Below, in pieces: positions 5,096-20,000 of a stretch of 20,000 nt of DNA. The stretch's first letter is position 1, and every line of letters begins with the position of its first letter. This DNA comes from an uncultured virus (IMG/VR IMGVR_UViG_3300028577_000007). Taxonomy: Duplodnaviria > Heunggongvirae > Uroviricota > Caudoviricetes. The stretch is from the IMG/VR virus record IMGVR_UViG_3300028577_000007; one strand, written 5' to 3'. Below the pieces are notes generated by a model. It made no database searches. It worked only from the letters and a program-made list of their open reading frames with translations, and was not told the DNA's origin. A program made the translations under genes and the position numbers.

Positions 5096-5104
5096 TACGT
5101 CACA

Positions 5105-5199: not shown

Positions 5200-5520
5200 A
5201 TGACCGACTCGACACCTGCCTCCGTGTACACCGTTTCGTTCTGGGGCTCGCACCCCGACGAAGAGAACGACGACTGCTGGACGGGCGAAGACTTCACGAG
5301 CCTCGACGAGGCTATGGCGGCGTTCCGGGCGGAGTGCCAGGACCGGGACGTGGCCTGCGTGATGATCGACGGTCCTGACTTGAACATCATCCGCCATAAC
5401 CCGGGCCACCGCCCGCGTCGTCGCGATGCCGACAGCTACGATCTCGAGCGCTCAGAGCGCGCCTTGCAGGCCGGGATGGCGTTCGGGTGCGACGGCTACA
5501 ACGACGAGATGGGCTACTGA
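5200..5520 (+). CDS. acidic phage hypothetical protein
   Basis: AAGGA RBS; WGSHPDEENDDCWTG and QAGMAFGCDGYND motifs. Confidence 0.75.
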   Translation: MTDSTPASVYTVSFWGSHPDEENDDCWTGEDFTSLDEAMAAFRAECQDRDVACVMIDGPDLNIIRHNPGHRPRRRDADSYDLERSERALQAGMAFGCDGYNDEMGY

Positions 5521-5554
5521 GGAAGATCTCCCGGCGCTCCGCGTAAGACCTAAC

Positions 5555-6709
5555 ATGACCCTCTCACTGCTCGTCCCCCAAGAGGCCTTGCCGAAAGTCC
5601 TCAAGCGCCTCGACAAGCTCGCCCGCGCGGCCGGCGTCCTCTGCGAGGAGGTGCCCGGCACGACGACCCTCATCCGAGACAAGCGCGTGCTCACCTGCGC
5701 GCGCCTCACCATCGGAGATCTCCCGAGCGTTGGCGGTTACGAGTTCGCGGCTCGCATCGAGCACACCGCCGCGGGCAACGTCATCGCTCGCGGCCCGAAG
5801 GAGCTCGACTCGCTCGACGCCTCCTGGCGCACGGCAGAGCCCCTCTGCGAGCACTGTAGCACCAAGCGCCGGAGGAAGGAGACGTTCCTGCTCCGCCAGT
5901 ACGGCATGCGCCTCATGCAGATCGGCCGCAATTGCCTGGCCGACTTTCTGATGACCGACCCGGGCCAGATGATCGCGCTCGCCGAGCTCGTGCGGGCGGC
6001 GACCGAGGAACAGAGCGACGAGTGCTGGGGCGGTTACGGCGGCTACTGGGAGGTCGCGCCGCTTGCCTTCATCGCGTGCGCGGTCGCCACGACCGAGCGC
6101 GACGGCTTCGTCAAGGCGAAGGACGAATTCCGCACCCCCACGGCCGCTATCGCGACCTTCCTCAGCGATCCTCAGCCCTCGGGCGACAGGTCCGCAGAAT
6201 GGCTCGCGGGCCAATCGAACGAAGATCACATCGAGACCGCTCACGCTGTCATCGCGTGGGCCGCGAGCCCCGGCGACAACGCCTCCGAGTACCTCTGGAA
6301 CCTTTCCCTCGCGGTGAAACAACCTGGCGTCGGTAAGCACGCTGGGCTCCTCGCGAGCGCGCCGGCCGCGTACAACCGCTTCCTCGGGAAAGAGGTCCAG
6401 AAGAAACTCGCGCCCGCACGCCCCGAGGGCTTCGCCGTCGAGAAACACATGGTGTTTTCGGGCGAGGTCACGCTCATCCGCCACTACCTGATGCACGACG
6501 AACGCTTCGACACATCGAAAGCGATCTGCACCTTCCGCACGGACGAGGGCCACGAGGTGGTATGGTTTGCGACGGGCGTCGCGCCGAAGCCGGACATGCA
6601 AGGCATGCGCTTCCACATCAAGGGGCGCTGCAAGAAGCACGAAGAGTGGAAGGGTATAAAGCGCGCCATCTTGTCGCGCGTGACCTGGAAGCCGATCGAG
6701 ATCCAATAG
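5555..6709 (+). CDS. Phage protein with Zn-finger-like motif and C-terminal OB-fold-like region
   Basis: CEHC...RRRKETF...QIGRNCLADF; C-terminal FRTDEGHEVVWF...KKHEEWKG...LSRV. Confidence 0.7.
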   Translation: MTLSLLVPQEALPKVLKRLDKLARAAGVLCEEVPGTTTLIRDKRVLTCARLTIGDLPSVGGYEFAARIEHTAAGNVIARGPKELDSLDASWRTAEPLCEHCSTKRRRKETFLLRQYGMRLMQIGRNCLADFLMTDPGQMIALAELVRAATEEQSDECWGGYGGYWEVAPLAFIACAVATTERDGFVKAKDEFRTPTAAIATFLSDPQPSGDRSAEWLAGQSNEDHIETAHAVIAWAASPGDNASEYLWNLSLAVKQPGVGKHAGLLASAPAAYNRFLGKEVQKKLAPARPEGFAVEKHMVFSGEVTLIRHYLMHDERFDTSKAICTFRTDEGHEVVWFATGVAPKPDMQGMRFHIKGRCKKHEEWKGIKRAILSRVTWKPIEIQ

Positions 6710-6720
6710 GAGAAGAGCGC

Positions 6721-7053
6721 GTGATCATCAACACCGAAATATGCGGCCACTACGAGCGCGTCATGCGCCCGCCCCCCGACGAGCGCCTCGCGCGCTTTCT
6801 TGATCAGGTAGGCCGGCGCGCCATGGTCATCCCCCACAAGGGCGGGCGCTTCGTCTGGCTCCTGGACGTGCCGACAGAAGATCTCTGCCAGGTCCACGAC
6901 GAAGCCGTAACCTTGAGCCTCAGTCTCTACGATCCTGAGCCCGTGCCCTTCAGGATTGGCGCCGCGGATCGGGAAAAAAGCGATCAGCTCCTGCTCGAGC
7001 GATACGACGCGCTCCGCTCGGCCCCGTCGCGAGGCACCGAAGAGGATCCATGA
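6721..7053 (+). CDS. hypothetical protein
   Basis: AGGAG RBS, GTG start. Confidence 0.65.
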   Translation: MIINTEICGHYERVMRPPPDERLARFLDQVGRRAMVIPHKGGRFVWLLDVPTEDLCQVHDEAVTLSLSLYDPEPVPFRIGAADREKSDQLLLERYDALRSAPSRGTEEDP

Positions 7054-7074
7054 CTCAGGACGAACGATCCAAGA

Positions 7075-7476
7075 GTGGGGGACGACGCTGGCTTCCGGGA
7101 AGAATCACTCGCCGGAATCAGAGCCCTCGAAGCGGAGCTTCGAATGGCTGAGCGTGAATTCGCTCAGCTGTCTAACCAACTGCTGCTTCAACAAGCGGAG
7201 GGGGAGCGTGACCGAGCAAACGAGCGAGCAAAAGCGGATCGCGATCGATCGGACGCGCTCGCCAGGCGGACGCTCTTGGTAGCCGCGCTAGCGGCAGTAA
7301 GCACGCTGGGTCAATGCGTCGCCCCGATCTATAAAATCTTCAGACCAGACATCGCCCCCGCTCCGATCGCAATCCCGGCTCCTATCGTAACGGTGACCGT
7401 TCCAGCCCCAACTCCACTTGTGATCCCGGCTCCGATCGTCAGCGTTATTGTGCCGGCCGCGGGCGCTCGCAAATGA
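7075..7476 (+). CDS. Coiled-coil + TM + Pro/Val-rich membrane protein (start uncertain)
   Basis: coiled coil, LLVAALAAVSTLGQCVAPI hydrophobic stretch, IPAPIVxVxVPA repeats. Confidence 0.65.
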   Translation: MGDDAGFREESLAGIRALEAELRMAEREFAQLSNQLLLQQAEGERDRANERAKADRDRSDALARRTLLVAALAAVSTLGQCVAPIYKIFRPDIAPAPIAIPAPIVTVTVPAPTPLVIPAPIVSVIVPAAGARK

Positions 7477-7504
7477 ATCGTTACGAGAAAATGAAGGAGG
7501 GTCC

Positions 7505-7831
7505 GTGACCGCACCCCGAAAAGAGCTCCTGATCTGGTGGACGAACAACGCCGAAGCGATCGCCATCGGCGACGAAGCTCCTGCAGCTCTTCCGGAGGAC
7601 GTGCGCGAGCAGTACCGCTTGCGGAGGGGCTGGTCGGGCGCCGGCGCCAAGCTCTGGGTGCCGAAGAAGTTCGGGGAGAGGCAGATTGCTGACTGGCCGG
7701 ACACATTCATCGCGCGCATGATTCGCAATGGAACATCCGCCGGGATTGTGTTCGCGAGCCCAGATCTGAAGCTGTTCAAGGGCGTCCCCGGTGTTCTGAC
7801 CGACTTCCAATTGCGCGTCGTGGTGATCTGA
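7505..7831 (+). CDS. hypothetical protein
   Basis: AAGGAGG RBS, GTG start. Confidence 0.7.
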   Translation: MTAPRKELLIWWTNNAEAIAIGDEAPAALPEDVREQYRLRRGWSGAGAKLWVPKKFGERQIADWPDTFIARMIRNGTSAGIVFASPDLKLFKGVPGVLTDFQLRVVVI

Positions 7832-8185
7832 ATGCCCACTCCTGATAACCTTCGACAAATCGCTCACCTCTTGGATCTGCTCGTCACCGTCGACCCCATG
7901 CACGTCAGGGTCGAGCTGCGCGGCGCGCGATCCATGTCCCCTACCCAGACTCGAGCACTCGCGATCGAGCTGCTCTACGCGGCCGACGAAGCCGAGGGCG
8001 AAGAGAGCCTCGGCTCCTTCGGCTACACGGCAGAGGACTCGTACAAGCTCGGGGAGCTCTACATGACCATCGACGAAGAACTCGGCTGGGAGGATGACGA
8101 GCAAGAGCTCGACAGTGACTACCGAGCGAGGATCAAGCAGGTGGGAGCGTTACTGAAACGTCGACTCAGGCTGGTGAAATCATGA
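7832..8185 (+). CDS. hypothetical protein
   Basis: abuts the upstream stop. Confidence 0.7.
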   Translation: MPTPDNLRQIAHLLDLLVTVDPMHVRVELRGARSMSPTQTRALAIELLYAADEAEGEESLGSFGYTAEDSYKLGELYMTIDEELGWEDDEQELDSDYRARIKQVGALLKRRLRLVKS

Positions 8186-8448
8186 CCGCGCGGCAGCTGA
8201 CCCCGGTTCCTACTCCCCATCAAGCAGTCCAGGTGCTCGAGATCTTGCAGCGCTGGACGAAGCGCGGCTGGTGGTACGACTCGTATATGACCCGCCACCA
8301 AGGCGTCGAGACGTACTACGTTCACTTCAGCGACCCAGACCCCGACGCGCCGGAACATTTAGAGACCAAAGGCGTGAACCACTTCGACGCCCTCTGCCAG
8401 GCCACGGCCGCGATGCAGATCTTGCTCGAAGAGCGTCCCGAGACCTAA
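8182..8448 (+). CDS. hypothetical protein
   Basis: ATGA overlap. Confidence 0.7.
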   Translation: MTARQLTPVPTPHQAVQVLEILQRWTKRGWWYDSYMTRHQGVETYYVHFSDPDPDAPEHLETKGVNHFDALCQATAAMQILLEERPET

Positions 8449-8703
8449 ATGGCCTTCGTTACCTCCTACGAACGCCGCACCCCGGGCGGACTCCGCACTC
8501 GCGTCCTCTGCTGCTACGACGGGCGCCAAGCGCGACCCGATGATCCGGTACTGAGCCACACCGTACACTTCTGCCAAGACCCAAGCGGGCGGCTAGCCCA
8601 CGTGGAAGAGCTCTGGAAAGAGCAGGGCTGGGGCAAGCGCGGAAAAGATCTTCCGATCTGCCCCGGGCACCGGCAACCAACCGACACCGACTGGACCGAC
8701 TAA
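8449..8703 (+). CDS. small GW...CPxH metal-binding-like protein
   Basis: abuts upstream stop; C-terminal LPICPGHRQPTDTDW. Confidence 0.65.
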   Translation: MAFVTSYERRTPGGLRTRVLCCYDGRQARPDDPVLSHTVHFCQDPSGRLAHVEELWKEQGWGKRGKDLPICPGHRQPTDTDWTD

Positions 8704-8945
8704 CGATGGCTATCTGGTTAGAGGAGCTGAATTCGGGCGGCCGGGTCGTGGGATGTCACCACGGTAATGAGTCGATGCTGAAACCAACGGACAACGGAAA
8801 GCTCGGCGTCGACAGATACCAGATCTACCCGACTCATACCCTCGAAGTGCCTCGCGACGCCGACCTAGTCGGATGGGCTCGTCGAGGCGGCCGGCTCCCC
8901 ATCTGCCCCGGGCACAGGCAACCAACCGACACCGACTGGGCCGAC
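8656..8945 (+). repeat. 45-bp direct repeat (8656-8700 / 8901-8945, 43/45 identical)
   Basis: ATCTGCCCCGGGCAC[C/A]GGCAACCAACCGACACCGACTGG[A/G]CCGAC. Confidence 0.95.
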
Positions 8946-8951
8946 CCATGA
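8706..8951 (+). CDS. small GW...CPxH protein sharing its C-terminus with the upstream gene
   Basis: LPICPGHRQPTDTDW tail; ATGA overlap with the next gene. Confidence 0.65.
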   Translation: MAIWLEELNSGGRVVGCHHGNESMLKPTDNGKLGVDRYQIYPTHTLEVPRDADLVGWARRGGRLPICPGHRQPTDTDWADP

Positions 8952-9343
8952 CCCTCATTTACACCCCGCGCCACGTCGATCAGCTCATCAATGAGATCGC
9001 AAACGATTGGGCCCAGACCAACGACCCCGACATGCACCGCGTAGCGGACGCTTTCCCGCTCGAAGTGCTCGAGAAGGCCTACCTGAAGAAGCTCGACGCC
9101 TTGGCTCCATTGCCAGAGTCCTCCTCAGGGCGCGCTGAGACGCCGGCCCAAAAGATCCATGTCATGCGGAGGCTGTGCCGCGCATGGTTCCGTGAGCCCC
9201 AGCTCCGCATCGGGCAATTCATCGCCACGGCGCTGCTTCACGGTAACCCCCGGTCTGCCGATGATGCCATGCGGCGTCTCTTCTATCAAGACGACAGCGC
9301 GATCGCCGATCTCGTGGAAAAGCGGTATTCTCACCCGAAGTGA
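8948..9343 (+). CDS. hypothetical protein with YihD/DUF1040-like C-terminal motif
   Basis: AWFREPQLRIGQFI...LFYQDD motif. Confidence 0.6.
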   Translation: MTLIYTPRHVDQLINEIANDWAQTNDPDMHRVADAFPLEVLEKAYLKKLDALAPLPESSSGRAETPAQKIHVMRRLCRAWFREPQLRIGQFIATALLHGNPRSADDAMRRLFYQDDSAIADLVEKRYSHPK

Positions 9344-10353
9344 CATCCGGCATCACGCGCCCCGATCCGCTGCACTTGTCACCCGGCCAGCGCCTGGAGG
9401 CAGAGCGGCTCTACGCTCGCGCGTTGGAGTTCGAGAGGGAGGGCACGCCGCTCAACACCAAGCGCGCCTACGAGGGCGACTGGAAGCGCTTCAGCGCTTG
9501 GTGCTCGGACTGGGGGCACCGCGCGCTCCCAGCCTCCCCGCAAGTCGTGATCTTGTACGTGACCTATCTCGCCGATCCCGAGCGCCCAGGCGGCTCTCAG
9601 AAGCCCGCCACCATCGATCGGGCCATGGCCGCGCTCTCGCATTACCATCGCGTGCGGGGCTACGTGTCACCGCGGCAATCAGTGCACGTGCAGACCCACG
9701 TCCGGAAGGTCAAGAACGCCCTGAAGCTCGCCCCCGAGCAGGCCCCGCCGCTCCTCGTGCGGCATCTCGAGAAGATCGTGGCGCGCATGCCGGCGACGGA
9801 GCCCGTGGCGATGCGGGACAAGGCGCTCCTCCTCATTGGCTGGTCGGGAGCGCTTCGGCGGAGCGAAATCGCGGCGCTCGATCGCTCGCACGCGGTCTTC
9901 ACGCCGGAGGGCATCCAGCTCACGATCGCCTCCTCGAAAACCGACCAAGAGGGCCAAGGCGAGCTCATCCCCATCGAGCCCGCCACGAACCCCGATCTCT
10001 GTCCGGTCGCAGCCCTGCGCGCCTGGCTCGAGGCGGGGCTCCCTCACCCGGACTCGGGACTGCTCTTTCCGCGCACGTACTTCGGCGGCCTCGTCTCCGA
10101 GCGCATGCCGGACCGGGAGATCAATGACGTGGTGAAGATCTGGACGCGAAAGGCGGGCGTGCTCCCGGACCAGCCAGGCGTGGAGTTTAGCGGGCACTCG
10201 CTCCGGGCAGGCTTCATCACGGAGGCCGCTCGCGCGGGCCGCGCCGAGTGGCAGATCATGGGGCATTCCCGGCACAGGAGCTACGAGGCCTTCCGCGGCT
10301 ACATCCGCCGTGCGAATCTCTTTCAGGATAACCCTGGGCGCGGGTTACTCTGA
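9340..10353 (+). CDS. Tyrosine recombinase, Cre-like
   Basis: NTKRAY...F..WC N-domain; RDKALLL, LRRSE (R), SSKTDQ (K), HSLRAG (H-x-x-R), RH, GYIR (Y). Confidence 0.95.
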   Translation: MTSGITRPDPLHLSPGQRLEAERLYARALEFEREGTPLNTKRAYEGDWKRFSAWCSDWGHRALPASPQVVILYVTYLADPERPGGSQKPATIDRAMAALSHYHRVRGYVSPRQSVHVQTHVRKVKNALKLAPEQAPPLLVRHLEKIVARMPATEPVAMRDKALLLIGWSGALRRSEIAALDRSHAVFTPEGIQLTIASSKTDQEGQGELIPIEPATNPDLCPVAALRAWLEAGLPHPDSGLLFPRTYFGGLVSERMPDREINDVVKIWTRKAGVLPDQPGVEFSGHSLRAGFITEAARAGRAEWQIMGHSRHRSYEAFRGYIRRANLFQDNPGRGLL

Positions 10354-10381
10354 CCCGCGCGCACCCACCAAAGGACCCCTC

Positions 10382-10702
10382 ATGAACCCCTTCGACTCTA
10401 TCAACATCAACTTTTCCAACATGCTCGGGAAACCCCTCCGTCACTGCTTCGTCCCCGCCGATCAGGCGAGCGTGACGTTCGTGTTCGAGGATGGAATGCG
10501 GCGCTCCTTCGGCGCCATGAACGCCGGCGGCACGCGCATCACGCCCGTCGCGCTCACCTCGGGCAAGCCCACCGAAGGCGTCACCTTCACGCGCGTCGAC
10601 TACCCGCTCGACACGGCCGACGGCATGCTCCTCGTCACGACGGAGAGCTCGGTGCGGGTGATGTTCCCCGTAGGAGGCTTTCTCACCGAACTACCCGAGT
10701 GA
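10382..10702 (+). CDS. hypothetical protein
   Basis: AAGGA RBS. Confidence 0.7.
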   Translation: MNPFDSININFSNMLGKPLRHCFVPADQASVTFVFEDGMRRSFGAMNAGGTRITPVALTSGKPTEGVTFTRVDYPLDTADGMLLVTTESSVRVMFPVGGFLTELPE

Positions 10703-11046
10703 CCCGTCGCATCGTCGCGAAAGAAAAGTTCCCGTGGCGCGGCTGGGAATTCCGCCAGTCGCTGTCGACCTCCCGCGAGGTGCACTGGCGGATGAAGCAC
10801 GGCAAGATCGAAGTGCGGCTCGTCTATCGGGACATCCAAGATCCGGACGCGCCGCCCGAGTGGACCGCGCTCATTCACATGCACGGGCTCGTCGATGGCG
10901 TCGGCAAGCACACGGCGGGAGCCGGGTGCTCGGAGGCGAGCTTCGAAGAGGCCCTCCTCGAAGCCGAGCGGGACTTCGAGCAGAAGCTCGTGGCGGCGGT
11001 TCGGTTGCTCGGTGAGCTTCGCCGAGGAAAACCGCGCGATCCGTGA
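10699..11046 (+). CDS. hypothetical protein
   Basis: GTGA overlap. Confidence 0.7.
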   Translation: MTRRIVAKEKFPWRGWEFRQSLSTSREVHWRMKHGKIEVRLVYRDIQDPDAPPEWTALIHMHGLVDGVGKHTAGAGCSEASFEEALLEAERDFEQKLVAAVRLLGELRRGKPRDP

Positions 11047-11050
11047 TCGC

Positions 11051-11080
11051 TTGACAGCTTCGTGCTGTCTCGTATAGCGT
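11051..11080 (+). promoter_or_regulatory. Sigma70 promoter with overlapping palindrome, heading the operon that ends in the Cas12m-like gene
   Basis: TTGACA(11051-56)-N18-TAGCGT(11075-80); inverted repeat GACAGC-TTCGT-GCTGTC (11053-11069). Confidence 0.6.
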
Positions 11081-11089
11081 GAGCGGGTC

Positions 11090-11350
11090 ATGTCGGACGC
11101 GCCTGAGATTCGCTCATTCATCTGCTTTGCGCGTCATCGGGATGAAAGCCGGAGACCGCGCTGGTCTCTCGTCTCGGCTTGGACCGCGGCCGACGCCATC
11201 GCCCAGAGCGAGCTCTACCTGCGCCGGCTGCCATGCAGCTGCGGTTCACGCTGCACGCACCTGCACCAAGAGTTGATCCTCACCCGAGTCGAGCCATTCG
11301 ATCGCGAGACTCACGAGTATTTGTTCCTGCACCAGGAAGATCGCTGGTAG
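11090..11350 (+). CDS. hypothetical protein (CxCxxxCxH)
   Basis: follows the promoter; CSCGSRCTH. Confidence 0.6.
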   Translation: MSDAPEIRSFICFARHRDESRRPRWSLVSAWTAADAIAQSELYLRRLPCSCGSRCTHLHQELILTRVEPFDRETHEYLFLHQEDRW

Positions 11351-11372
11351 CCCCTCCGTAGGACCACCCAAG

Positions 11373-11570
11373 ATGTCATTCCCACTCGCCTATCTCTTGC
11401 CGGCCGCCTATCTGCTCGTGGGCGGCATGCTGATGCTCGGTACGCAAACCATCGTGGGCAGGATCTTGACCCGCACGGAGATCGTGCGAGGCGTGTTGCT
11501 CTGGCCCGTCTTCCTGCTCCTCGCCATCGAACACTTCCTCCTCGAGCTGATCGGCCGGTACCGTGACTGA
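11373..11570 (+). CDS. small membrane protein (2 TM)
   Basis: two hydrophobic segments, LLWPVF motif. Confidence 0.7.
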   Translation: MSFPLAYLLPAAYLLVGGMLMLGTQTIVGRILTRTEIVRGVLLWPVFLLLAIEHFLLELIGRYRD

Positions 11571-11847
11571 TCCGGTCATCCTGAGCGATCTCACGCGCGC
11601 GCTCCGAGATCTCGAGCTCGTGAGGCCCTACTCGTCGAGCCCGACCGCCCGCACGTGGCGGGGGGCCATCGTCAACCTCCGCGGCATCGAAGCCGTGCTC
11701 ATCGCGATCGACGCCTTCAGGCCAGGGCTCCTCCGGGCTCTCGAGGCCTCCGCGATCGACGAGATGCTCGTGGTGCACGACGAGCCGATCCCGGAGGTGA
11801 CGGCGCTCATCCGGCGCTACGCGCGCCGACTGGAGCCACTCCGGTGA
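11563..11847 (+). CDS. hypothetical protein
   Basis: overlapping GTG start; GC3 bias. Confidence 0.65.
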   Translation: MTDPVILSDLTRALRDLELVRPYSSSPTARTWRGAIVNLRGIEAVLIAIDAFRPGLLRALEASAIDEMLVVHDEPIPEVTALIRRYARRLEPLR

Positions 11848-11885
11848 GCGATTTACTCACGGTGACACGGGCGAAGACCCTCTGC
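11760..11885 (+). repeat. Copy 1 of a ~125-bp inverted duplication (partner 17722-17844)
   Basis: Aligns to the reverse complement of 17722-17844 with one 3-nt indel and 3-4 substitutions. Confidence 0.95.
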
Positions 11886-12092
11886 GCCGAGGCGCTCGAG
11901 AAGCGCTTCGGCTGGCTCCGGCGCGAGCTCGCCCTCAAGGGCGGCAACCTGAACGAGCTGCCCGCGACGCACCAGCTGCTCTGGTTTGGGCGGCAGAAGG
12001 CTATCGGTCGCTACAACCGCATCGGTGAGCAGCGGGACCCGGGGAAACGTGAGCGCGCTTACCTCAAGCTCGCGCGAGAGCTTCAGCGATGA
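11844..12092 (+). CDS. hypothetical protein
   Basis: GTGA overlap, GGAG RBS. Confidence 0.65.
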   Translation: MSDLLTVTRAKTLCAEALEKRFGWLRRELALKGGNLNELPATHQLLWFGRQKAIGRYNRIGEQRDPGKRERAYLKLARELQR

Positions 12093-12343
12093 AGCCTCCC
12101 GCGATGAAGCTCCTGAACTGCACGCGCTGCGACGACGTGGTGAAGCTCGTCGAGAAGCTCCGGTACTGCGAGTGCACGCTCTCGAGCGGACGGACGGAGT
12201 TCTCGGGGGCAGAGGTGACGATCGCGGGTCCGGCCCGCGTGCTCACGATCGATTGGGAAGTGTACGACGGGATCGCCGAGGGGACCGAGCGACCGTTTGG
12301 TGTTCTGCCGCGATCCCAGTACCGGGTGAAAGGCAGCTTATGA
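12089..12343 (+). CDS. Zn-ribbon-like small protein
   Basis: MKLLNCTRCDDVVKL...YCEC. Confidence 0.7.
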   Translation: MKPPAMKLLNCTRCDDVVKLVEKLRYCECTLSSGRTEFSGAEVTIAGPARVLTIDWEVYDGIAEGTERPFGVLPRSQYRVKGSL

Positions 12344-12585
12344 AAGGTCGAAATGTATTCGCCGAAGAGATCACGTTCGTCCTGGTCGATCGTCAGACCG
12401 GCGAGCGTCGTGTCGCAACGCGCGATGACATCAAAAAGATCCTCGCTGAGCTAGGGCTCGAGATCGTTCCAATCGGAACAGTGAACTGGGGAAGGCATCC
12501 GGACGCTGACCTTATGGAACGAAGAATCGCTGACCTGACCGAAAAAATCGCTGCATTGACCAAGAAAGATCCAGTTGCACCATGA
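12340..12585 (+). CDS. hypothetical protein
   Basis: ATGA overlaps on both sides; AAAGG RBS. Confidence 0.65.
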   Translation: MKGRNVFAEEITFVLVDRQTGERRVATRDDIKKILAELGLEIVPIGTVNWGRHPDADLMERRIADLTEKIAALTKKDPVAP

Positions 12586-14144
12586 TGGTCTACCGCTACG
12601 GCGCCTTGAAGCCTCGCGTGCTCGATAACGACGGAGCCGAGCTCCCCTTCGAGACGCTGCTCGACTACCAACGTCTCTCGAACCGCTTCTACAATGCCCT
12701 CGTCGAGATCGAGCGCTGGCGCATTGCGGCTGAGTTCGTGACCGAGATACTCAACGGAGATCGGCTCACCGAAGACCAGAAGAACGAGCACCGGCTCGCT
12801 TACAACGCGGACTGCTCTGTCGCGGGTCAAGAGACGACGATCGGCTGGGGCCAGAAACAGGCCGTGACCGAGATGGTTGCGGCCGCGGTGAAGACCCGTC
12901 GCAAAGACGAAGCCAAGGCGCGCCGGAAGGCTGACCTGAAAGACTGGCACTGGCTGAAGCGCGTGCTCGCCATCCCGCGGCCCCGCTACCGGCGCTTCGA
13001 CGGCGAGGGCCCTATTGCGGCAACCGTCCAGGGGTGCAGCAAGCTCACGGTGAAGTCCGTGCTCTCACCGAGCCCCAAGCCCACCAAGCGGAAGAAGCCC
13101 CTGGCGACCCATGTTGCCCTCCGCGTCGTGGAGACCAAGCATCGCAACTCCCACGCGATCGTCACGCTCCGCCTGTGCGACACGCTCAGTCTCGAAGTGC
13201 CGATCGTCTACGCCCCTGAGCGCGCAGAGTATCGCAATTCCGACGTGCGCCCGCTCCCGAAGGAGTCCATCGGCCCGAGCGGCGCCCCGTACGATGTCCG
13301 CGTCATCTTCGCTCGCTTGCTCGTCGATCGCATTGGGGATCGCTGGGTGTACTCCGTGCACTTCACGATCGATGCCGTGCACGCGAAGAAACCGACGGGC
13401 ATCGGGAAGTGCGCCGTCAACTTCGGCTGGCGGCGCGTGCCGGGAGGCGTCCGGGTCGCCTACGCCGTGGGCGAGGACGGCCGCGAGCAGTCCCTCGTGC
13501 TGCCCGATAAGCTCTTCGCTCGCATGGAGCACGCGGAATCCCTTCGCGGGCTCGCTGACGAGATCGCCGACGCTTACCTCGGCGACGGCGGGCGGCGCGC
13601 GAAGTCGCGCAAGGTGGCGCTCTCGTCGCCTCACGCCAATCACCCCGAGCTCGGCAAGATCCGCTTCACTCTCGAGCAGGCCAAGCTCGGGAGCGCCAAG
13701 GACGCCGAGCAGTGGGCGCGGCGCGACCGGCACCTCTATCAATGGGAGCGAGACGAGTACACGAAAGCGCTTCGCTCGCGGCGCGAGATCTATCGTCTCT
13801 GGGCGCGCGAGCTCCTCACCCAGTACGACTCCGTCGTCATCGAGACCTTCGACATTCGGCAGGTCATCGAGCGCGGGAAGTACGAAATGAACATCCCGCA
13901 GGCGCGGCACTATCGCTTCCTCGTGGGCCCGCACTACTTGAGGCTCGACATCGAAGATGTGTTCGGGGAGCAGTGCAAGGTGCTACCGCCGGCGAAGCAC
14001 ACCCAGACTTGCCACGTGTGCGGCACCAAGTGCACATGGGATCGCGCCCGCGAGCTCATGCACGACTGCAAGAAGTGCGGAGCGTCTTGGGATCAGGACG
14101 CCAACAACGCCCGGAACCAGCTCGCGGCGGCTGCAGCCGAGTAA
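12582..14144 (+). CDS. TnpB/Cas12m (type V-U1)-like RNA-guided protein, RuvC-I D->N (probably nuclease-dead)
   Basis: VYRYG...RFYNALVEIER, GWG, PRYRRFDGEG; RuvC-I AVNFGWR (N280), RuvC-II VVIETFD (E421), Zn finger TQTCHVCG...CKKCG, RuvC-III WDQDANNARN (D506). Confidence 0.85.
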   Translation: MMVYRYGALKPRVLDNDGAELPFETLLDYQRLSNRFYNALVEIERWRIAAEFVTEILNGDRLTEDQKNEHRLAYNADCSVAGQETTIGWGQKQAVTEMVAAAVKTRRKDEAKARRKADLKDWHWLKRVLAIPRPRYRRFDGEGPIAATVQGCSKLTVKSVLSPSPKPTKRKKPLATHVALRVVETKHRNSHAIVTLRLCDTLSLEVPIVYAPERAEYRNSDVRPLPKESIGPSGAPYDVRVIFARLLVDRIGDRWVYSVHFTIDAVHAKKPTGIGKCAVNFGWRRVPGGVRVAYAVGEDGREQSLVLPDKLFARMEHAESLRGLADEIADAYLGDGGRRAKSRKVALSSPHANHPELGKIRFTLEQAKLGSAKDAEQWARRDRHLYQWERDEYTKALRSRREIYRLWARELLTQYDSVVIETFDIRQVIERGKYEMNIPQARHYRFLVGPHYLRLDIEDVFGEQCKVLPPAKHTQTCHVCGTKCTWDRARELMHDCKKCGASWDQDANNARNQLAAAAAE

Positions 14145-14150
14145 GCGAGC

Positions 14151-15140
14151 TCAGTCCGAGTCGGGACCGTACTGCTCTTCGTAGGCCTCTTTCGAGGCCT
14201 CGAACGCTGCGTCGTACAGTGATCCGTCGGCGCCACCGGAAGGTCGGCGCCCCGGATCGATCTCGTCGAGCGTCCACTCCCAGCTCGGGATGTACCCCGA
14301 CTCGGTGTACGTGTGATCGGGGTACATGGCGTCCATGACATCGTCGTCGTCGGCGTCCGGGTTTTCTTCACGGTAGTCCTCCTCCATCTCCCTGAGCGAA
14401 TCTTCGTCGGTGAAGATCCCGGGCGCGAACTCCTTGAGCCACCCAGCGGCTTCCTCCAGTGAGTCCTCGGCGGAGCTCGCCCAGACGAGCAGCTTCGTCC
14501 AGCCGTACGCCCCGAACTGCAGCGCAAAGAGTCTCTCTCGGGCGTACTTGCTCCGCGGGTACTCGAGAGGGTTTACGAGAATGAATCCTGGCTCACTCGA
14601 GCCCTCTTCCTCGATGACCAGAAACTCTTCGTCCGTCTCGCGACCGTGCTTGTCGCCGCGGCGGGCGCGATGGGGGTTCTTGGCGAGGCGAGCTTCGCGC
14701 TTTGCGTTTTGCTGGTTCACCCAATCATCCGCTTCCCACTTGGTCTTCCAAGGTTGCCGACCGATACCAACGGTGCCGGTGTCTTCGTTGCGCACTGTCC
14801 ACCCTACCGTGTCCAGACGCCATTGGTGCTGCTCTCGCTCAGATCCCCAGGGAGCGGCTCCATACGGGCTTGCGGTGCGTCCATTCGGACCGCGCCATAC
14901 CTTGCTCTCGATGACAGTATACCTGTGACTGCCATTCACGACGAGGTCTCGGGAGCTGCCCTTCCACGTGCCGCGCTTCTCCGGCTCGAACGGCTTCTCC
15001 GTCGCACGGTGCTCGCTCGCGATGCGCCTCACGCGCTCGAGCGCGCTCTCGCGCGGGGCCCCTGATGGCGAGTGCACGCGGTGCCGGAGGGGAGGAGGGG
15101 CAACCGGGAGGCGGTTCTGGCGGAGGCGGCGGAGCGGCAT
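14151..15140 (-). CDS. modular hypothetical protein (basic N-terminus, acidic C-domain)
   Basis: Long ORF; start at ATG 15140 or 15188; GC3 bias in the C-terminal half. Confidence 0.7.
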   Translation of the reverse strand: MPLRRLRQNRLPVAPPPLRHRVHSPSGAPRESALERVRRIASEHRATEKPFEPEKRGTWKGSSRDLVVNGSHRYTVIESKVWRGPNGRTASPYGAAPWGSEREQHQWRLDTVGWTVRNEDTGTVGIGRQPWKTKWEADDWVNQQNAKREARLAKNPHRARRGDKHGRETDEEFLVIEEEGSSEPGFILVNPLEYPRSKYARERLFALQFGAYGWTKLLVWASSAEDSLEEAAGWLKEFAPGIFTDEDSLREMEEDYREENPDADDDDVMDAMYPDHTYTESGYIPSWEWTLDEIDPGRRPSGGADGSLYDAAFEASKEAYEEQYGPDSD

Positions 15141-15191
15141 CCCGGGGAGAGTATCGGGCGAGCGGGGACGAGCGCAACTTTTTCGCATTTT

Positions 15192-15224
15192 GATCTGGAC
15201 ACGGGAACGTGTGTTCAGTATTTA
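15192..15224 (+). promoter_or_regulatory. higBA promoter with LexA-like box
   Basis: TGGACA(15196-201) then GGGAACGTGTGTTCAG (15203-218; GAAC-N4-GTTC core); same layout as 530-563. Confidence 0.5.
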
Positions 15225-15248
15225 CTTGCCTCTATCCCGGGAGGGGGC

Positions 15249-15557
15249 ATGATCAAATCGCACGGAGATCAGGGAACACAAGACCTTCACAACCGTAAAG
15301 ACACGAAGGCGGCAAGGCGATGCCTGCACCCGAAATTCTGGAAAAGGGCCTACCGTGCCCTGGATGAGCTTCACTCGGTCGCGAGTCTGAGTCAGCTTCG
15401 TGCTCTTCGGCAACTGCGCTTGCATAAACTGCGGGGTAATCTCAAGGGCTGGTACGCGATCGACTTCGGCTATCAAGAGCGCATCGTGTTCCGGTACGAC
15501 GAGGCCTCAAACTCCGCCACTGACGTATTCGTTAGCAATGACCACTATGGAGACTGA
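15249..15557 (+). CDS. higB: HigB (RelE superfamily) toxin
   Basis: GGAGG RBS; MIKS, RLHKLRGNLKGWYAI...RIVFRY, terminal DHY. Confidence 0.85.
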   Translation: MIKSHGDQGTQDLHNRKDTKAARRCLHPKFWKRAYRALDELHSVASLSQLRALRQLRLHKLRGNLKGWYAIDFGYQERIVFRYDEASNSATDVFVSNDHYGD

Positions 15558-15561
15558 TCCA

Positions 15562-15852
15562 ATGCTTCTTCCTGAAAATGGGCCACCGACTCATCCCGGG
15601 GAATTCGTCCTCTACAGCTTCATGCTGCCAAGCGACATCACGCTCACCGCTCTGGCCTCAAGCATGGGGATCCCTAGAGAGGAGGCGCGCATGCTGATCG
15701 ATGGCGAGATCGCCTGTACTCCGCGCCTCGCCGAAAAATTGGCAACTGCCCTCGAGACCGAAGCCGAATTCTGGCTCTCTGCCCAGAGCATCTACGATGC
15801 CTGGCTCAAGCGCGAAGGCCTCTACGAGAGCTACTACCTCGCCGCGAACTAA
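15562..15852 (+). CDS. higA: HigA HTH antitoxin (start may be 15538 or 15547)
   Basis: PTHPGE...LA..MGI...TPRLAEKLATAL...EFWLSAQ..YD. Confidence 0.9.
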   Translation: MLLPENGPPTHPGEFVLYSFMLPSDITLTALASSMGIPREEARMLIDGEIACTPRLAEKLATALETEAEFWLSAQSIYDAWLKREGLYESYYLAAN

Positions 15853-15860
15853 GCAGACAC

Positions 15861-16094
15861 ATGGCGACATATGAATTCGATGTCCAGCTCCTCGCCTCTG
15901 AGATCACAGACGATCTAGCGGAGCTGGTGTTTAACGCTGGCTGCGACGACGCCGTTTTGTGCAAATACGACCGCGTCGTGTACTTGAGCTTCGAGCGCAA
16001 GGCCCCGAGCCGGGAGACCGCTGTGCGCTCCGCTCTGGAGGCGCTAGCTCAAGCGCACGTGCCGTTCGTGGCCGACGTACGGTGCGCCTCTTAG
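15861..16094 (+). CDS. HicB-like N-terminal domain only (AGCDDA family)
   Basis: FNAGCDDA, VYLSFER, AVRSAL; 50% identical to gene 1..249. Confidence 0.75.
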   Translation: MATYEFDVQLLASEITDDLAELVFNAGCDDAVLCKYDRVVYLSFERKAPSRETAVRSALEALAQAHVPFVADVRCAS

Positions 16095-16477
16095 CTCGGT
16101 GAGCCCGACGCCCGCACCACTGCCCGCTCGATCTTTTCCGCCTGCATCGCGAGATCGTTCGGCTCGATGAGCCCCGTCTGCAGCTGCCGCACGCAGATCT
16201 GCGCCTCGACGAGCGCTGCGTTGACCACGCGGATCGCCCGCTCGTGCGACTCGTGCCCAGCGCGCATCTCCCGGTAGTACCGCTCGGCGCGCTCCACCAT
16301 GCGAGCCGCAGAACCTGCCGACTCTTTGTAGCGATCTGACAGCACGCCCGTCCCGACGCCGCGATCCTCTACCGATCGAGGATCCGTCAGGCGCCCTAGC
16401 TCCGTGGCACAGAGATGCGCGCTGCGCGCCACGAGCAGGATCGCTCGCAGGCACGAGGCACGCGCGTCGGGATCCAC
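16091..16477 (-). CDS. helical hypothetical protein
   Basis: GTG start; converges on the TA operon with a 4-nt overlap. Confidence 0.6.
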   Translation of the reverse strand: MDPDARASCLRAILLVARSAHLCATELGRLTDPRSVEDRGVGTGVLSDRYKESAGSAARMVERAERYYREMRAGHESHERAIRVVNAALVEAQICVRQLQTGLIEPNDLAMQAEKIERAVVRASGSPS

Positions 16478-16488
16478 CGTCTGATCTC

Positions 16489-16869
16489 TCAGAGACCTGG
16501 GACTACTGTAACCGTGGTCGCGTCGAGCTCGAGGTAGGCCCCGTTCGAGAGCAACTTGACGAGCACGTATTCCTTCGCGGCCGACCGGTTGTAGGCCGCA
16601 ATCACCACGCCATTGAACGCCGCCGAGTACCCAGGGACGTTCACGACAGTGCCGAGGAGGGCAAGCGTCGTGGGGTTCGCGTTGACGATCTCGTCGAGCT
16701 GGCCCGCGGCGACCGCCGCAACGTGCTGACCGTTGTACCAGTTGACGGCGCCTCCCGCGGCTCCCTCCGCCACCCCGAACACCGGCGGTTGCGCCGTCTG
16801 GTAACCGACCCCTGTGAGGGCCGCCGACGTGGTCTTCAGCGCGACAATCGAACCTGCAGCAATAGCCAT
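16489..16869 (-). CDS. Ala/Gly/Val-rich protein, possibly virion-associated
   Basis: composition and GC3 bias; has its own promoter. Confidence 0.7.
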   Translation of the reverse strand: MAIAAGSIVALKTTSAALTGVGYQTAQPPVFGVAEGAAGGAVNWYNGQHVAAVAAGQLDEIVNANPTTLALLGTVVNVPGYSAAFNGVVIAAYNRSAAKEYVLVKLLSNGAYLELDATTVTVVPGL

Positions 16870-16876
16870 GGCAGGG

Positions 16877-16906
16877 AGGCTACCCGAGGAAGGGAGGGGA
16901 TGTCAA
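16877..16906 (-). promoter_or_regulatory. Sigma70 promoter, leaderless type
   Basis: TTGACA(16906-901)-N18-TAGCCT(16882-877)-N7-ATG, no SD. Confidence 0.65.
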
Positions 16907-16908
16907 AT

Positions 16909-17763
16909 TCACGGGCAGTGCGCCTCGATCTTCCAACTTGCGGGCCAGCCAGGCTTCCCCGGTTGCTGGCTCGCGCAGGTGCCCTGGTCAACACACGAGA
17001 ACGCGATCTCCTCGCCGAGCTTGCACGCGCCTCCCCCGGTGTCGTCGCACCGGGCCGTCTGGATTTCCCCCAATAGGTAAGCGCCGGCGAATCCCCATGC
17101 CCGGGCTGAGCATGCAAATGGGCTCGGGGCCGTCAGAAACCACCGGACGATGGGCACCATGCTGCTCGTCCCGGGGCCAACCGCAATGAACGAAACCCCG
17201 TCTGCACTTGCCGGGTATGCCATGGGGACATTGCAGCTCGCAGGAGCACCGTTGACCGTGATCGATCGGTTATCGACCCAATCGGTACAGCTCACCGTGT
17301 TGAACGGCGTCGAAATACGCAAGCAAACCGCGCCCATGGTGCGAATATCGGCCTCGCCCGACGGATCGCCGTCGATCCAAGGGGAGCAGGGAGGGGCGAT
17401 GCCCGAGCCGCCCGCGCCAGAAGCGCCGCCGCTCCCGGGGGCACCTGGCGCGCCGCCAGAGCCAGCGATGCCTGAGCGGCCGCCGGCGGCCAAGGAACCC
17501 CCATCGGGCGCCCCTGCGCGCCCCAGATCGTCCGCGGGAGAAGACCCAGCAGAGGGCGCGCCGGCCTCACTTGCGGCGACAGCTCCGGACGCACCCGCTT
17601 CGCCGTCAGACGGCAGAGCGACGTCCGCCGCCGAAAATGGACCACCGCAGGCTGGTAGCAGGAAAGCTAGAGCGAGGAGGATCTTCAGGAACCCCCATCG
17701 GGCGCCCCTGCGCGCCACCCAGCAGAGGGTCTTCTCCCGTGTCACCGTGAGCAAATCGCTCAC
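16909..17763 (-). CDS. Lipoprotein with Gly/Ala/Ser linker and Cys-rich extracellular domains (start uncertain)
   Basis: LLALAFLLPA-C lipobox; GGA/GGS-rich linker of myxobacterial type; multiple Cys. Confidence 0.7.
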   Translation of the reverse strand: MSDLLTVTREKTLCWVARRGARWGFLKILLALAFLLPACGGPFSAADVALPSDGEAGASGAVAASEAGAPSAGSSPADDLGRAGAPDGGSLAAGGRSGIAGSGGAPGAPGSGGASGAGGSGIAPPCSPWIDGDPSGEADIRTMGAVCLRISTPFNTVSCTDWVDNRSITVNGAPASCNVPMAYPASADGVSFIAVGPGTSSMVPIVRWFLTAPSPFACSARAWGFAGAYLLGEIQTARCDDTGGGACKLGEEIAFSCVDQGTCASQQPGKPGWPASWKIEAHCP

Positions 17764-17844
17764 CGGAGTGGCTCCAGTCGGCGCGCGTAGCGCCGGACGA
17801 GCGCCGTCACCTCCGGGATCGGCTCGCGCACCACGAGCATCTCG
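17722..17844 (-). repeat. Copy 2 of the ~125-bp inverted duplication
   Basis: reverse complement of 11760-11885. Confidence 0.95.
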
Positions 17845-17879
17845 CTTTGAGGCCCATACGATCATCTCATCTGATTGCT

Positions 17880-18353
17880 TCACCCGGTATGCTCCTTCAG
17901 CGCCTTGATGTTCACCGATACGCTCGCGGGCTCGGCGATCTTCCACTCTGGCGGAATCGGCATCCAATGGGTAAATACCGCGAACGCTGTGCTCAGCCCG
18001 TGCCTCCGGACGAGCGCGAGGCCATCCGGGGACCCCTGGTCGACCTCGATCCAGCCAGCCACCGGCTCGTAGAGCGCGCTGCGGGCTACGATCTCGTCCC
18101 CGGGCTTGGGGAGGCAGTCGGTGCGGGGGATCCATGCGGCAGCGCGAGCGAGAGCGGTGTCCAACTCGGCGATGCGCTGGTCGCGCCACGCGAGCTGCAT
18201 TGCGATTTCTGCCTTGGAATGGAGACCCTCTGCTGTCATCGCCGCAACGTTCCGGGAATAGTGCGGTTCTAGCTTCCACGGGAGCAGGTCGTCGGGATAC
18301 CGGCAGATGGCGCGCTCCGGCAGCTCCACCCCCATAATCTTCGGCGCGGTCAC
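17880..18353 (-). CDS. Phage protein with AMTAEGLHSK domain and C-terminal DUF551-like domain
   Basis: GTGA overlap start; WIPRTDCLP...THWMPIP. Confidence 0.7.
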   Translation of the reverse strand: MTAPKIMGVELPERAICRYPDDLLPWKLEPHYSRNVAAMTAEGLHSKAEIAMQLAWRDQRIAELDTALARAAAWIPRTDCLPKPGDEIVARSALYEPVAGWIEVDQGSPDGLALVRRHGLSTAFAVFTHWMPIPPEWKIAEPASVSVNIKALKEHTG

Positions 18354-18481
18354 TTGGCACCCGCCGCCTTCTTGAGCAGTTCCGCGCCGACCTTGCAAAG
18401 CTCCAGGGGGTGTTCGCGGCACTGCTTGCAGGAGTCCAGATGCGCGTGGAATTGATCGGACGCTTTCTTGAAGTCGGTCAC
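18350..18481 (-). CDS. 43-aa His/Cys small protein (not in ORF track)
   Basis: MTDFKKASDQFHAHLDSCKQCREHPLELCKVGAELLKKAAGAK; GTGA overlaps at both ends. Confidence 0.7.
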   Translation of the reverse strand: MTDFKKASDQFHAHLDSCKQCREHPLELCKVGAELLKKAAGAK

Positions 18482-19397
18482 TTGTCACCCGCCGGGACGT
18501 ACTTGACCACGCGGAACTCGTGCCTTGGGCTGTTTGTACGGTACATGCCCTGCGCAAAACATCCTCGCCCTGCGCATCGGCCTCGTACGAGTACAACTTA
18601 TAATCGCTAGCGGGGAAGCGGTCGCCGCATCCGATACACCGGACGTATTTCGCTTCATCGGGCTTCGTCTCTCGACTCACCCACGAATGAAAGCCATCGT
18701 GCTTCGCGGGGAATGAGCAAACTTCGCCACATGAACCATGCTTGACGATTCCGCACTTCGCCTCGGGCTTCGCCTCTACGCGACGGACGGCGGTGACCCA
18801 ATCGCGTCGGGTCCCGCCAAAGCGAAACACCCACCGGCCGAAGTCTTGTACGGCCTCGACTGTCATCAGCGTTGGCGTGCGCAGTCTATGGGCGGCACCG
18901 TCAACATCCTCGTACTCCCCCGGCTCCAGCGTCACGCCCTCGGCTGCGCGGATAAGCATCGAGCAAGGCGTGTCCGGAATCATGCCTAGAGCCTGCGTCG
19001 CGAAGTGCATGCCACTTTTCAACGGGAACCCCTTCTCGCAGTAATAGCAATGCTCGCCTCTGACCGTAGCCTGCTCATCCTGAGTGAGCGCTAAAAAGTC
19101 TAGCGAGGGCTTTGGCTCGGGTTGTGGGTCGCTCACCCATTCGTACTGTCGTAGTAATGAGCTCTCGCTTAACGTGTGCAAACCGCCCTTGTCGCTCGTT
19201 AGCCGGACCACGTCCGCCGAGAAAATGGCATCTACAATCCACAGCGCGTCTCCGCGTCCCCACCTCGACCCCACAACAATCGGCCTCTCCTCTGCCGCCG
19301 CTGGCCAGGTCGCCCCAACCGCCTCAAGCTCCTTTTTCGTGTGGGTCATATGGTAGCGTTCAGACGGCGTCGTCGCCTCAGGCTTAGCGTCTTCCAT
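18478..19397 (-). CDS. Modular Cys/His-rich phage protein, probable frameshift near 18550-18580
   Basis: AGGAG RBS; CYYC, CGEVC...HDGFH, CIGCG; a natural-looking end (...FRVVKYVPAGDK*) lies in another frame. Confidence 0.6.
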
Positions 19398-19417
19398 TCA
19401 GGTCTCCTGCTTCAGGA

Positions 19418-19426
19418 AAGATAGCA
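19418..19426 (-). promoter_or_regulatory. possible extended -10 promoter
   Basis: TG-C-TATCTT upstream of the AGGAG RBS; no -35. Confidence 0.3.
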
Positions 19427-19469
19427 CATTACTTCGGCGGGCGCGGGTACCCGTCGCACCAGCAGGTGC

Positions 19470-20000
19470 TCATTTCTGAAGCCACAGCATGCGGTGGTCA
19501 CCGGTATCTGGACTCACAGCGTCTTCGATCGTGACCGGGCGCACTTGGCCGTCCGTCCCGATCGATCGAAGCTCAGGGAACCCCATCCCCTGGATCTCGC
19601 GCAGCGCATCGAGAGGGGAGACGTGGTCCGCGGGCGTAAACTCGAGCGCGACGGCGATCTTCGGGCTCCGCTCGATGAGGCCTTTCATCCCGCGGAGCAC
19701 CTCGAGCTCGTGCCCCTGCGCGTCGACCTTCACGAAGTCGGCGTGCTCGTGATTTTCATCAAGCCTCGCGCAGAACACCTTCGCGTCTGGTGACATCAGT
19801 CCTTCTGCGAAGCGCAGTGAAGCTGACCCCATGAGCCTATTGCTCAGGAACAGCGGCCTCATACCTTCGTAGTCAGACGCGGCGACGGGGTGACAAATAT
19901 CATCCCCGCCATTGATCATGAGGGTGTCGATCAGAAGCTCGGCCACGCGCGGCTGGGGCTCGTAGGCCGTGACACTCCCCTTGTCGCCCGCGAGCTCCTT
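19470..20000 (-). CDS. FkbM-family SAM methyltransferase, 5' end outside the window
   Basis: GSVTAYEPQP, RLD...DFVKVDAQGHELEVLRGM...ALEF; frame open to 20000. Confidence 0.85.
   Translation of the reverse strand, partial: KELAGDKGSVTAYEPQPRVAELLIDTLMINGGDDICHPVAASDYEGMRPLFLSNRLMGSASLRFAEGLMSPDAKVFCARLDENHEHADFVKVDAQGHELEVLRGMKGLIERSPKIAVALEFTPADHVSPLDALREIQGMGFPELRSIGTDGQVRPVTIEDAVSPDTGDHRMLWLQK

Follow-up and report, generated by a model that had tools for sequence, protein, structure and literature searches.

The window analysed here, a stretch of 20,000 nucleotides (nt) from an uncultured Caudoviricetes virus (IMG/VR record IMGVR_UViG_3300028577_000007), carries a cas12m-like gene that is the last of a phage operon and has no CRISPR array beside it. 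Judging by sequence, profile and predicted fold, all of which put Cas12m first, its product of 520 amino acids (aa), P0001, belongs to Cas12m (type V-M / V-U1), within a compact, phage-borne clade having an Asn-Glu-Asp (NED) RuvC triad. In the reading that we prefer, to which we give about an even chance of being right, P0001 is an intact Cas12m effector whose bare gene moved into an operon slot and which would be armed in trans from an array of its own genome.

Family and fold of the protein

Stop-free translation of the open reading frame (ORF) at 12582-14144 (+) gives the 520 aa, and the features that an earlier note, made from the letters of this DNA alone, had read in it were all verified by translation and alignment: the ORF itself, an asparagine at the RuvC-I position (N280, codon AAC at 13419), E421, D506 and a zinc finger. 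The start overlaps the upstream stop as that note had described, the ATG at 12582 sharing letters with the TGA at 12583-12585 (ATGA). Across an alignment of 40 close sequences (A1, comprising P0001-P0041 minus the 327-aa fragment P0030), E421, D504/D506 and the cysteines C477, C480, C496 and C499 are all present and invariant. The only Pfam match is the TNB zinc finger (PF07282, Cas12f1-like TNB), with 26.7 bits compared to a cut-off of 26.3 bits, and PHROGs returned weak 'transposase' matches.

The placement in the Cas12m/V-U1 lineage, also proposed in the earlier note, is borne out at three levels. In the PDB, the Cas12m entry 23vw_A is the sole strong sequence match (phmmer, E 4.4e-29, residues 236-516), the next hits having E > 0.05, and its motif AIDLGWR, bearing an aspartate, aligns opposite AVNFGWR of P0001. 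The PADLOC profile Cas12u1, the old name of Cas12m, matches with E 7.6e-46, over residues 236-518 only. Regarding the fold, the AlphaFold2 (AF2) model, built on 40 homologues (pLDDT 86, pTM 0.78), presents the bilobed WED-REC-RuvC-TNB arrangement of Cas12m2 and GoCas12m, and its top four Foldseek matches are the four solved Cas12m entries. By VIA-align, the model superposes on Cas12m2 (8hhm) with Z 22.2 and a root-mean-square deviation of 3.5 over 437 residues, in an end-to-end alignment (model 1-519 to chain 4-592) with the same order of fold elements, and on GoCas12m (8pm4) with Z 19.9 over 449 residues; a TnpB structure reaches Z 19.4, nearly as high, yet with only 334 residues aligned. The identity to solved Cas12m structures is only about 20%.

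Membership in TnpB (IS200/IS605) was rejected, as the NCBIfam models score below their cut-offs on P0001 (IS200_TnpB 23.8 bits compared to 425, guided_TnpB 15.9 compared to 100), no transposase occurs among the 36 ORFs of the window, and neither insertion sequence (IS) ends nor Rfam families were found there. Membership in TldR was also set aside: the RuvC-I residue is substituted, but the protein descends from within Cas12m and has no cis guide, there being a 6-nt gap to a coding gene and no model match. The TnpB-Cas12m intermediate suggested in the earlier note does not survive either, as the clade is nested among Cas12m-like proteins of about 600 aa, its members use ordinary CRISPR arrays, and the TnpB score stays so far from 425 bits.

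The RuvC triad and a compact phage clade

A word-indexed search recovered 58 relatives of P0001, and an exhaustive one 2608 at E <= 0.001, with 61 at E <= 1e-30. Among 198 proteins, the RuvC-I column holds Asp in 102, Asn in 91, His in 3 and a gap in 2. A tree built from C-terminal halves (195 sequences, 300 columns) groups 48 sequences, all bearing Asn, in one clade with a support of 1.0 and a median length of 479 aa, compared to 600 aa outside it. The whole N280/E421/D506 triad is invariant in 40/40 aligned sequences. The asparagine is thus conserved among homologues, being present in all aligned sequences and all 48 clade members, and is not a recent GAC>AAC decay, in line with the earlier note.

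As a new kind of inactivation, however, the asparagine must be given up, since NED is already catalogued for Cas12m: the triad types of its four clades comprise HEK/HQK, HDD, DED, NED and DND, with NED listed for clades 3 and 4 (PMC10442227). With an invariant Asn and a catalogued triad, the 'dead RuvC' is ordinary Cas12m biology, not private decay. For Cas12m bearing a DED, HDD or NDD triad, DNA binding without cutting has been reported in every case (PMC11013384).

When 185,579 prokaryote species were scanned, each represented by one genome, no more than four distant relatives turned up, with 23-32% identity, so the compact clade looks phage-specific. Relatives of P0001 lie on IMG/VR contigs of 40-200 kb, and the clade itself on phage genomes of 110-135 kb.

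CRISPR arrays and spacers of the relatives

Repeats were detected by a k-mer scan, followed by a covariance model, R1, made from seven repeats of six loci, with the loci L039, L034 and L032 outside its training set. In 9/9 distinct close-clade loci with DNA, a repeat or array begins 56-70 nt past the cas12m stop, the number of repeats ranging from a single one to 27 (Table 1). True repeats score 40-58 bits under R1, those of L039 and L034 reaching 44.8 and 40.5, while that of L032, truncated where the contig stops, gets 19.6. The clade repeats are 36 nt long and end in GAGAC, with 18 of the 36 positions invariant (seven repeats, six loci), and possess a 6-bp stem kept by compensatory changes (CTCGGT/ACTGAG, CTCAAG/CTTGAG, CCTGAT/ATCAGG), whose pairing matches the pseudoknot described for the CRISPR RNA (crRNA) of Cas12m2 (PMC10442227).

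The 78 extracted spacer sequences were compared with all DNA of this analysis. Spacers 4 and 5 of L028 (L028 11789-11897) match the kin phage G001 at 120619-120653 (34/35) and 102068-102105 (37/38), L028 and G001 sharing 78-89% nucleotide identity where aligned, which is, at the level of sequence, direct evidence of targeting between kin phages. Spacer 3 of L002 (L002 11794-11831) is antisense to cas12m, in the conserved LVEIERWRIAA region (L002 10110-10147, L001 10110-10147, window 12706-12743), matching its own cas12m at 36/38, that of G001 at 33/38 and that of the window at 27/38. The 5' flank of its own-genome target ends in TTC, fitting the 5'-TTN protospacer-adjacent motif (PAM) reported for Cas12m2 (PMC10442227), and the spacer may have been either taken from a rival's cas12m or kept as a self-regulating guide. 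Own-genome matches are also shown by spacer 17 of L003 (35/37) and spacer 5 of L001 (30/34). Near-perfect matches to kin, together with imperfect matches to self, are as expected if the spacers come from close competitors. At six protospacer matches, the last letters of the 5' flank are CTC, CGT, TTC, CTC, TCC and CGT, two partial matches (27/41 and 26/38) being left out of this list.

These kin-matching spacers support phage-against-phage silencing as the role of the clade. The repression of competitors proposed in the earlier note is therefore supported for the clade; for the window copy, such a role would follow by extension from its relatives. None of the 78 spacers matches the window beyond 18/19 nt, and that partial match, of L002 spacer 3 inside the window cas12m, reflects gene homology.

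Several loci of the clade present repeats in other arrangements. L039 has one repeat 70 nt past the stop, followed by unique sequence (208-320), forming a one-guide locus; its protein, known from the last 69 residues, is 85% identical to P0028 and 69% to P0001. In G001, three repeats with spacers of 25 and 15 nt lie in the cas12m leader (L114 8975-9122; G001 28975-29122), the last one ending 29 nt before the ATG, an arrangement through which the effector may regulate itself by its own mRNA leader. G002 bears a second cluster of 6-7 repeats, with spacers of 18-35 nt, at the far contig end (L125 10300-10692; G002 110300-110692), on the strand opposite the main array, which sits at the contig start; the two could be contiguous in a circularly permuted genome. 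Outside the 27-repeat array of G003, a 41-kb record (L126/L127), nine solitary repeats of 31-54 bits are scattered at 5693, 9030, 11751, 12584, 17974, 19048, 27874, 36323 and 38797 (record coordinates), with stems kept by compensatory changes, e.g., CCTGAT/ATCAGG, and they may serve as guide units, as decoys or in RNA processing.

Across the broader Cas12m-like family, the k-mer scan placed no array close to the gene at 12 or more distinct loci with 1.8-10 kb of downstream sequence (L005/L006, L014, L020, L035, L048, L053, L075, L078/L079, L081, L098, L105 and L108), L014 having only a distant upstream array match. They cover both D-type and N-type RuvC-I, and at this number array-less Cas12m-like genes are not rare.

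A bare gene in a variable operon slot

The window is part of a phage, as the earlier note had held: from about 1856 to 20000 it is collinear with G001, a kin phage of 135,429 bp with direct terminal repeats and 100% completeness by CheckV, with protein identities of 37-84%. Upstream of cas12m, the four small overlapping genes from 11563 to 12585 form, by their reading frames, one operon with it, and cas12m is translationally coupled to its upstream gene through the ATGA overlap. As this upstream gene, 12340-12585 is preferred because it overlaps the stop of 12089-12343 likewise and has a kin-phage homologue; it reads better than a 199-aa ORF of the ORF list, which was rejected as partner.

Homologues of three of these four genes occur in the same order in G001, where the homologue of 12340-12585 likewise shares an ATGA with the next gene, here an unrelated one of 256 aa, which precedes a 241-aa gene and a homologue of the convergent gene that faces cas12m in the window. 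As G001 has the unrelated gene at the cas12m position, the window cas12m is a cassette in a variable slot, of which the convergent gene marks the right border. The N-terminal part of the convergent gene is 76% identical to G001 6134-6997, and its variation in the contig L025 is mostly synonymous. The 6-nt gap between both stops is too short to hold a leader, an array or a terminator. In 4/4 public runs, a contig spans the junction between cas12m and the convergent gene without a single differing letter, ruling out an assembly artefact at this junction; two of these runs may be the source of the window itself. All contigs from these runs were short, and their many joints with sides of 20-22 letters were left out of account.

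As stated in the earlier note, the window lacks tnpA, IS ends, cas genes and a CRISPR array, which was confirmed by k-mer, motif, R1, Rfam, Pfam and PHROGs scans. The k-mer scan of the window found no array, and searches for the repeat motif returned 0 hits and a single one at chance level; tnpA or other cas genes had no match among the 36 ORFs (Pfam, PHROGs), and Rfam had 0 families at the gathering threshold. Applied unfiltered to the window and to the contigs L025, L026 and L027, R1 reached 13.8 bits at best, compared to the 40-58 bits of true repeats. This best match, at 14946-14967(-), was rejected, as it lacks 14 central repeat bases, lies on the sense strand of a coding ORF and has the wrong strand for a former array; another, at L027 10329-10372 (12.3 bits), falls inside a densely coding stretch. 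L027 reaches 9.6 kb past the cas12m stop and is packed with minus-strand genes.

Regarding the state of the protein, of the 160 alignment columns with >=85% conservation P0001 deviates from the consensus in 4, compared to 0 for P0015 and 6 for P0027, both array-bearing, and it is at most 66% identical to every other sequence found. Its gene is nucleotide-identical in the window, L025, L026 and L027. The protein bears no sign of decay.

In G001 and L030, cas12m plus array lie upstream of a block matching window 600-6700. This synteny would place such a locus roughly 3-6 kb ahead of base 1 of the window.

Source of the guide and alternative readings

By analogy with Cas12m (PMC11013384, PMC10442227), P0001 would process its own pre-crRNA, bind a crRNA through a repeat-derived handle, find matching double-stranded DNA beside a short PAM and stay bound there, thereby blocking transcription or replication instead of cutting. 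The bare window gene closes a conserved five-gene operon, at a position that is exchangeable, and, having neither leader repeats nor array, would have to be armed in trans. Its guide would most likely come from another part of the same genome, of about 127 kb (the exact protein is on record on a contig of 127,411 nt), bearing an array or solitary repeats, with the kin cas12m-array position before the window start as the first candidate. Guide sources elsewhere are common in kin, as seen by the leader repeats of G001 (three), the second cluster of G002 and the nine solitary repeats of G003.

Several points weigh against this reading. No array, solitary repeat or structured RNA was found in the 20-kb window and the 3.7 kb beyond it (L027), 23.7 kb in all, so the trans guide source is assumed. 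Among the kin phage records, 0/3 have more than one cas12m and 0/3 have cas12m split from its array, and a split locus would thus be unusual. The nine array-bearing loci, like all loci with DNA context, fall in subclades other than that of P0001 and its nearest relatives (P0002-P0010, P0017 and P0026), and the 9/9 count covers those other subclades. The four copies of the gene are identical, giving no variation that could show purifying selection, and a recent array loss would leave a protein just as intact. In addition, non-cleavage by the NED triad is extrapolated from other triads, and for clades 3 and 4 two-metal catalysis has been suggested as still possible (PMC10442227).

Such a recent loss is the core of the next account, a possible but rather unlikely one, in which the gene recombined into the slot without its array and, having no usable guide, is idle or decaying, its frame being intact only by recency. 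The 23.7 kb free of repeats agree with it, as does the lack of nucleotide variation that could show selection; the flanks are mosaic among contigs, breaks occurring near 11270-11384 and from 15006 onwards and L025 carrying other genes, as in a recombination-prone region, and the single repeat of L039 indicates that arrays can shrink in the clade. However, a protein at most 66% identical to all others still keeps 156 of the 160 conserved columns, and its gene is coupled precisely to the operon (ATGA). Moreover, the same arrangement is present in contigs of 4/4 runs, and 13 of 24 listed public runs contain no less than half of the words sampled from it, so the carrier phage is widespread.

Cross-loading between phages offers a different solution, which we hold to be improbable. 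Here P0001 would be an exapted orphan that loads crRNAs of co-infecting kin phages or of a resident element, redirecting or soaking up their guides. The 18 invariant positions of the 36-nt repeat make cross-loading conceivable, kin phages aim spacers at each other, including at cas12m, and no cis guide was found. Yet an intact protein, once loaded, would add to the silencing of its own genome by rival guides, and no spacer of the 78 reaches the window beyond the 18/19 nt mentioned above. In a wider form, given an equally slender chance, P0001 and perhaps its whole subclade would be guide-less, stand-alone operon Cas12m proteins, armed only by crRNAs of kin phages or residents and capturing or redirecting rival guides. 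The guide-RNA sponge proposed in the earlier note finds nothing in this analysis to support it, and we know of no precedent for a protein acting as a crRNA sponge.

A regulator of the TnpB/TldR type, repressing a host or phage gene with a fixed non-CRISPR guide RNA encoded in cis at the gene's 3' end or flank, is very improbable: the substituted RuvC-I, the phage location, shared with flagellin-regulating TldRs (bioRxiv 10.1101/2023.11.30.569447, 10.1101/2025.07.22.666180), the TNB domain and the weak phage 'transposase' PHROGs fit it, but every close relative with DNA has 36-nt CRISPR repeats, the NCBIfam TnpB score is 23.8 bits at a cut-off of 425, only 6 nt separate cas12m from a convergent coding gene with mostly synonymous variation, Rfam is empty, and neither tnpA nor IS ends are present.

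Carrier phage and neighbouring features

Table 1. Coordinates of cas12m, its sites and its neighbours in the window, and CRISPR repeats next to cas12m in the relatives.
Feature	Position	Strand	Remarks
cas12m-like gene	12582-14144	+	520 aa (P0001); compact phage-borne clade, Asn-Glu-Asp RuvC triad
N280 codon AAC, RuvC-I position (AVNFGWR)	13419-13421	+	N in 40/40 aligned sequences
E421 codon, RuvC-II (VVIETFD)	13842-13844	+	Invariant in A1; coordinate computed from ORF start
D506 codon, RuvC-III (WDQDANNARN)	14097-14099	+	Invariant in A1; coordinate computed from ORF start
CxxC...CxxC zinc finger, TNB domain (C477, C480, C496, C499)	14010-14078	+	Pfam PF07282; four Cys invariant
Operon gene 1	11563-11847	+	No Pfam, PHROG or PADLOC match
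Operon gene 2	11844-12092	+	Overlaps neighbours; no Pfam, PHROG or PADLOC match
Operon gene 3	12089-12343	+	84 aa; no Pfam, PHROG or PADLOC match
Operon gene 4	12340-12585	+	81 aa; no Pfam, PHROG or PADLOC match
Gap, cas12m stop to convergent stop	14145-14150		6 nt; relatives have 56-70 nt, then repeats
Convergent gene (P0199), right border of variable slot	14151-15188	-	345 aa; no function by PHROG, Pfam, PADLOC, NCBIfam
Array of L001 (= L029)			23 repeats
Array of L002			5 repeats; contig ends
Array of L003 (= L033)			27 repeats
Array of L028			6 repeats
Array of L030			12 repeats
Array of L031			6 repeats
Array of L034			2 repeats; contig ends
Repeat of L032			1 repeat; cut by contig end
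Repeat of L039			1 repeat; single

The kin phage G001 encodes collagen-like tail fibres, a DnaB helicase, RNase H, sigma factors, thymidylate synthase and thymidylate kinase, and DNA methyltransferases. In the window, Pfam and PHROGs recognise a tyrosine integrase, a phosphatase-like protein and an FkbM-type methyltransferase among many ORFans; scans of the G001 cassette genes and of the window neighbours with PHROG, Pfam, PADLOC and NCBIfam gave no function. The integrase (Pfam PF00589; window 9340-10353) is 84% identical to that at the same position of G001, and the phages of 110-135 kb that carry the clade may be temperate. The INPHARED phages have no nucleotide match to the window and a sole protein match, to Virus Rctr197k (30% identity), and the 91-aa protein of 210-485(-) has no relative among the viral contigs searched. 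The tRNA scan found none. In one metagenome scan, all contigs of the window's own phage were of 12 kb or less.

An inverted repeat of 136 nt, 94% complementary, at 11760-11895 and 17712-17844, brackets a 5.8-kb segment with cas12m. It was rejected as an IS end, being instead a duplicated gene junction: its right copy contains a C-terminal piece of gene 11563-11847, 33 aa long (17760-17861, minus), as well as the first ~13 codons (VSDLLTVTR.KTLC) common to 11844-12092 and a lipoprotein-like gene on the minus strand that begins near 17759. The cas12m segment could be inverted if the two copies recombined. Direct repeats are located at 8650-8700/8895-8945 (51 nt, 92%), 3067-3105/3466-3504 (39 nt, 90%) and 17493-17522/17687-17716 (30 nt, 100%), within or between small genes, and some run contigs skip or repeat 3067-3466 and 8695-8941. 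At window position 12183 (L027 position 479), one metagenome contig has a C>A change turning a Ser codon into a stop in the 84-aa gene 12089-12343, two genes upstream of cas12m.

Significance and comparison with known systems

If the gene works without an array of its own, a CRISPR effector can travel among phage genomes as a bare cassette and receive its guide remotely or through another element, which would alter the reading of 'orphan' cas genes in viruses. The clade supplies natural Cas12m proteins of 425-520 aa, smaller than the ~600-aa ones used for CRISPR interference and base editing. It resides on abundant soil phages, whose spacers are aimed at kin phages, even at a rival's cas12m gene, and some of its genomes bear repeats in the cas12m leader or as scattered solitary units, making it a tractable system for phage-against-phage silencing and possible self-regulation.

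Phage-encoded effectors accompanied by an array, lacking adaptation genes and having spacers against competing mobile elements are represented by Cas-phi of huge phages. The same combination has been described for Cas12r of the Thermus Lalka phages (bioRxiv 10.64898/2026.04.20.719267). Both differ from the present clade in belonging to other Cas12 subfamilies and in being nucleases and array-adjacent effectors. TldRs are small RNA-guided DNA binders with an altered RuvC, some of them phage-encoded, acting by repression (bioRxiv 10.1101/2023.11.30.569447, 10.1101/2025.07.22.666180); unlike these TnpB-derived proteins, which have a fixed guide beside the gene, P0001 belongs to a CRISPR-associated family, has no cis guide and lies far below the cut-offs of the TnpB models. 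In the part of the Cas12m and phage Cas12 literature surveyed, no description of a compact NED phage clade or of an array-less member was found, which does not prove that none exists.

Compared to the characterised Cas12m proteins (MmCas12m2, 8hhl/8hhm/8hio; GoCas12m, 8pm4; 23vw), P0001 has its best sequence, profile and fold match with them and shares the GWR motif after RuvC-I, the 36-nt repeats of its relatives end in GAGAC, and its NED triad is among those listed for clades 3 and 4 (PMC10442227). In contrast to them, its clade is ~100 aa shorter (median 479 compared to 600 aa) and phage-borne, and the window copy is devoid of the adjacent CRISPR array present in 9/9 close relatives with DNA. 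A single phage-encoded Cas12m has been reported, MvCas12m of the myxophage MV-1, a 610-aa protein whose RuvC triad is DED and whose gene adjoins an array of eight spacers, without cas1/2/4, and which its authors presented as the first phage Cas12m, finding no protospacers and proposing a role against competing elements (bioRxiv 10.64898/2026.09.14.751636). Both are phage-encoded Cas12m, and Cas1 was found in 0/3 kin records here. Set apart by description, not by sequence, the present system differs from MvCas12m in the array-less window copy and in a clade of 425-520 aa with an NED triad and protospacers in kin phages.

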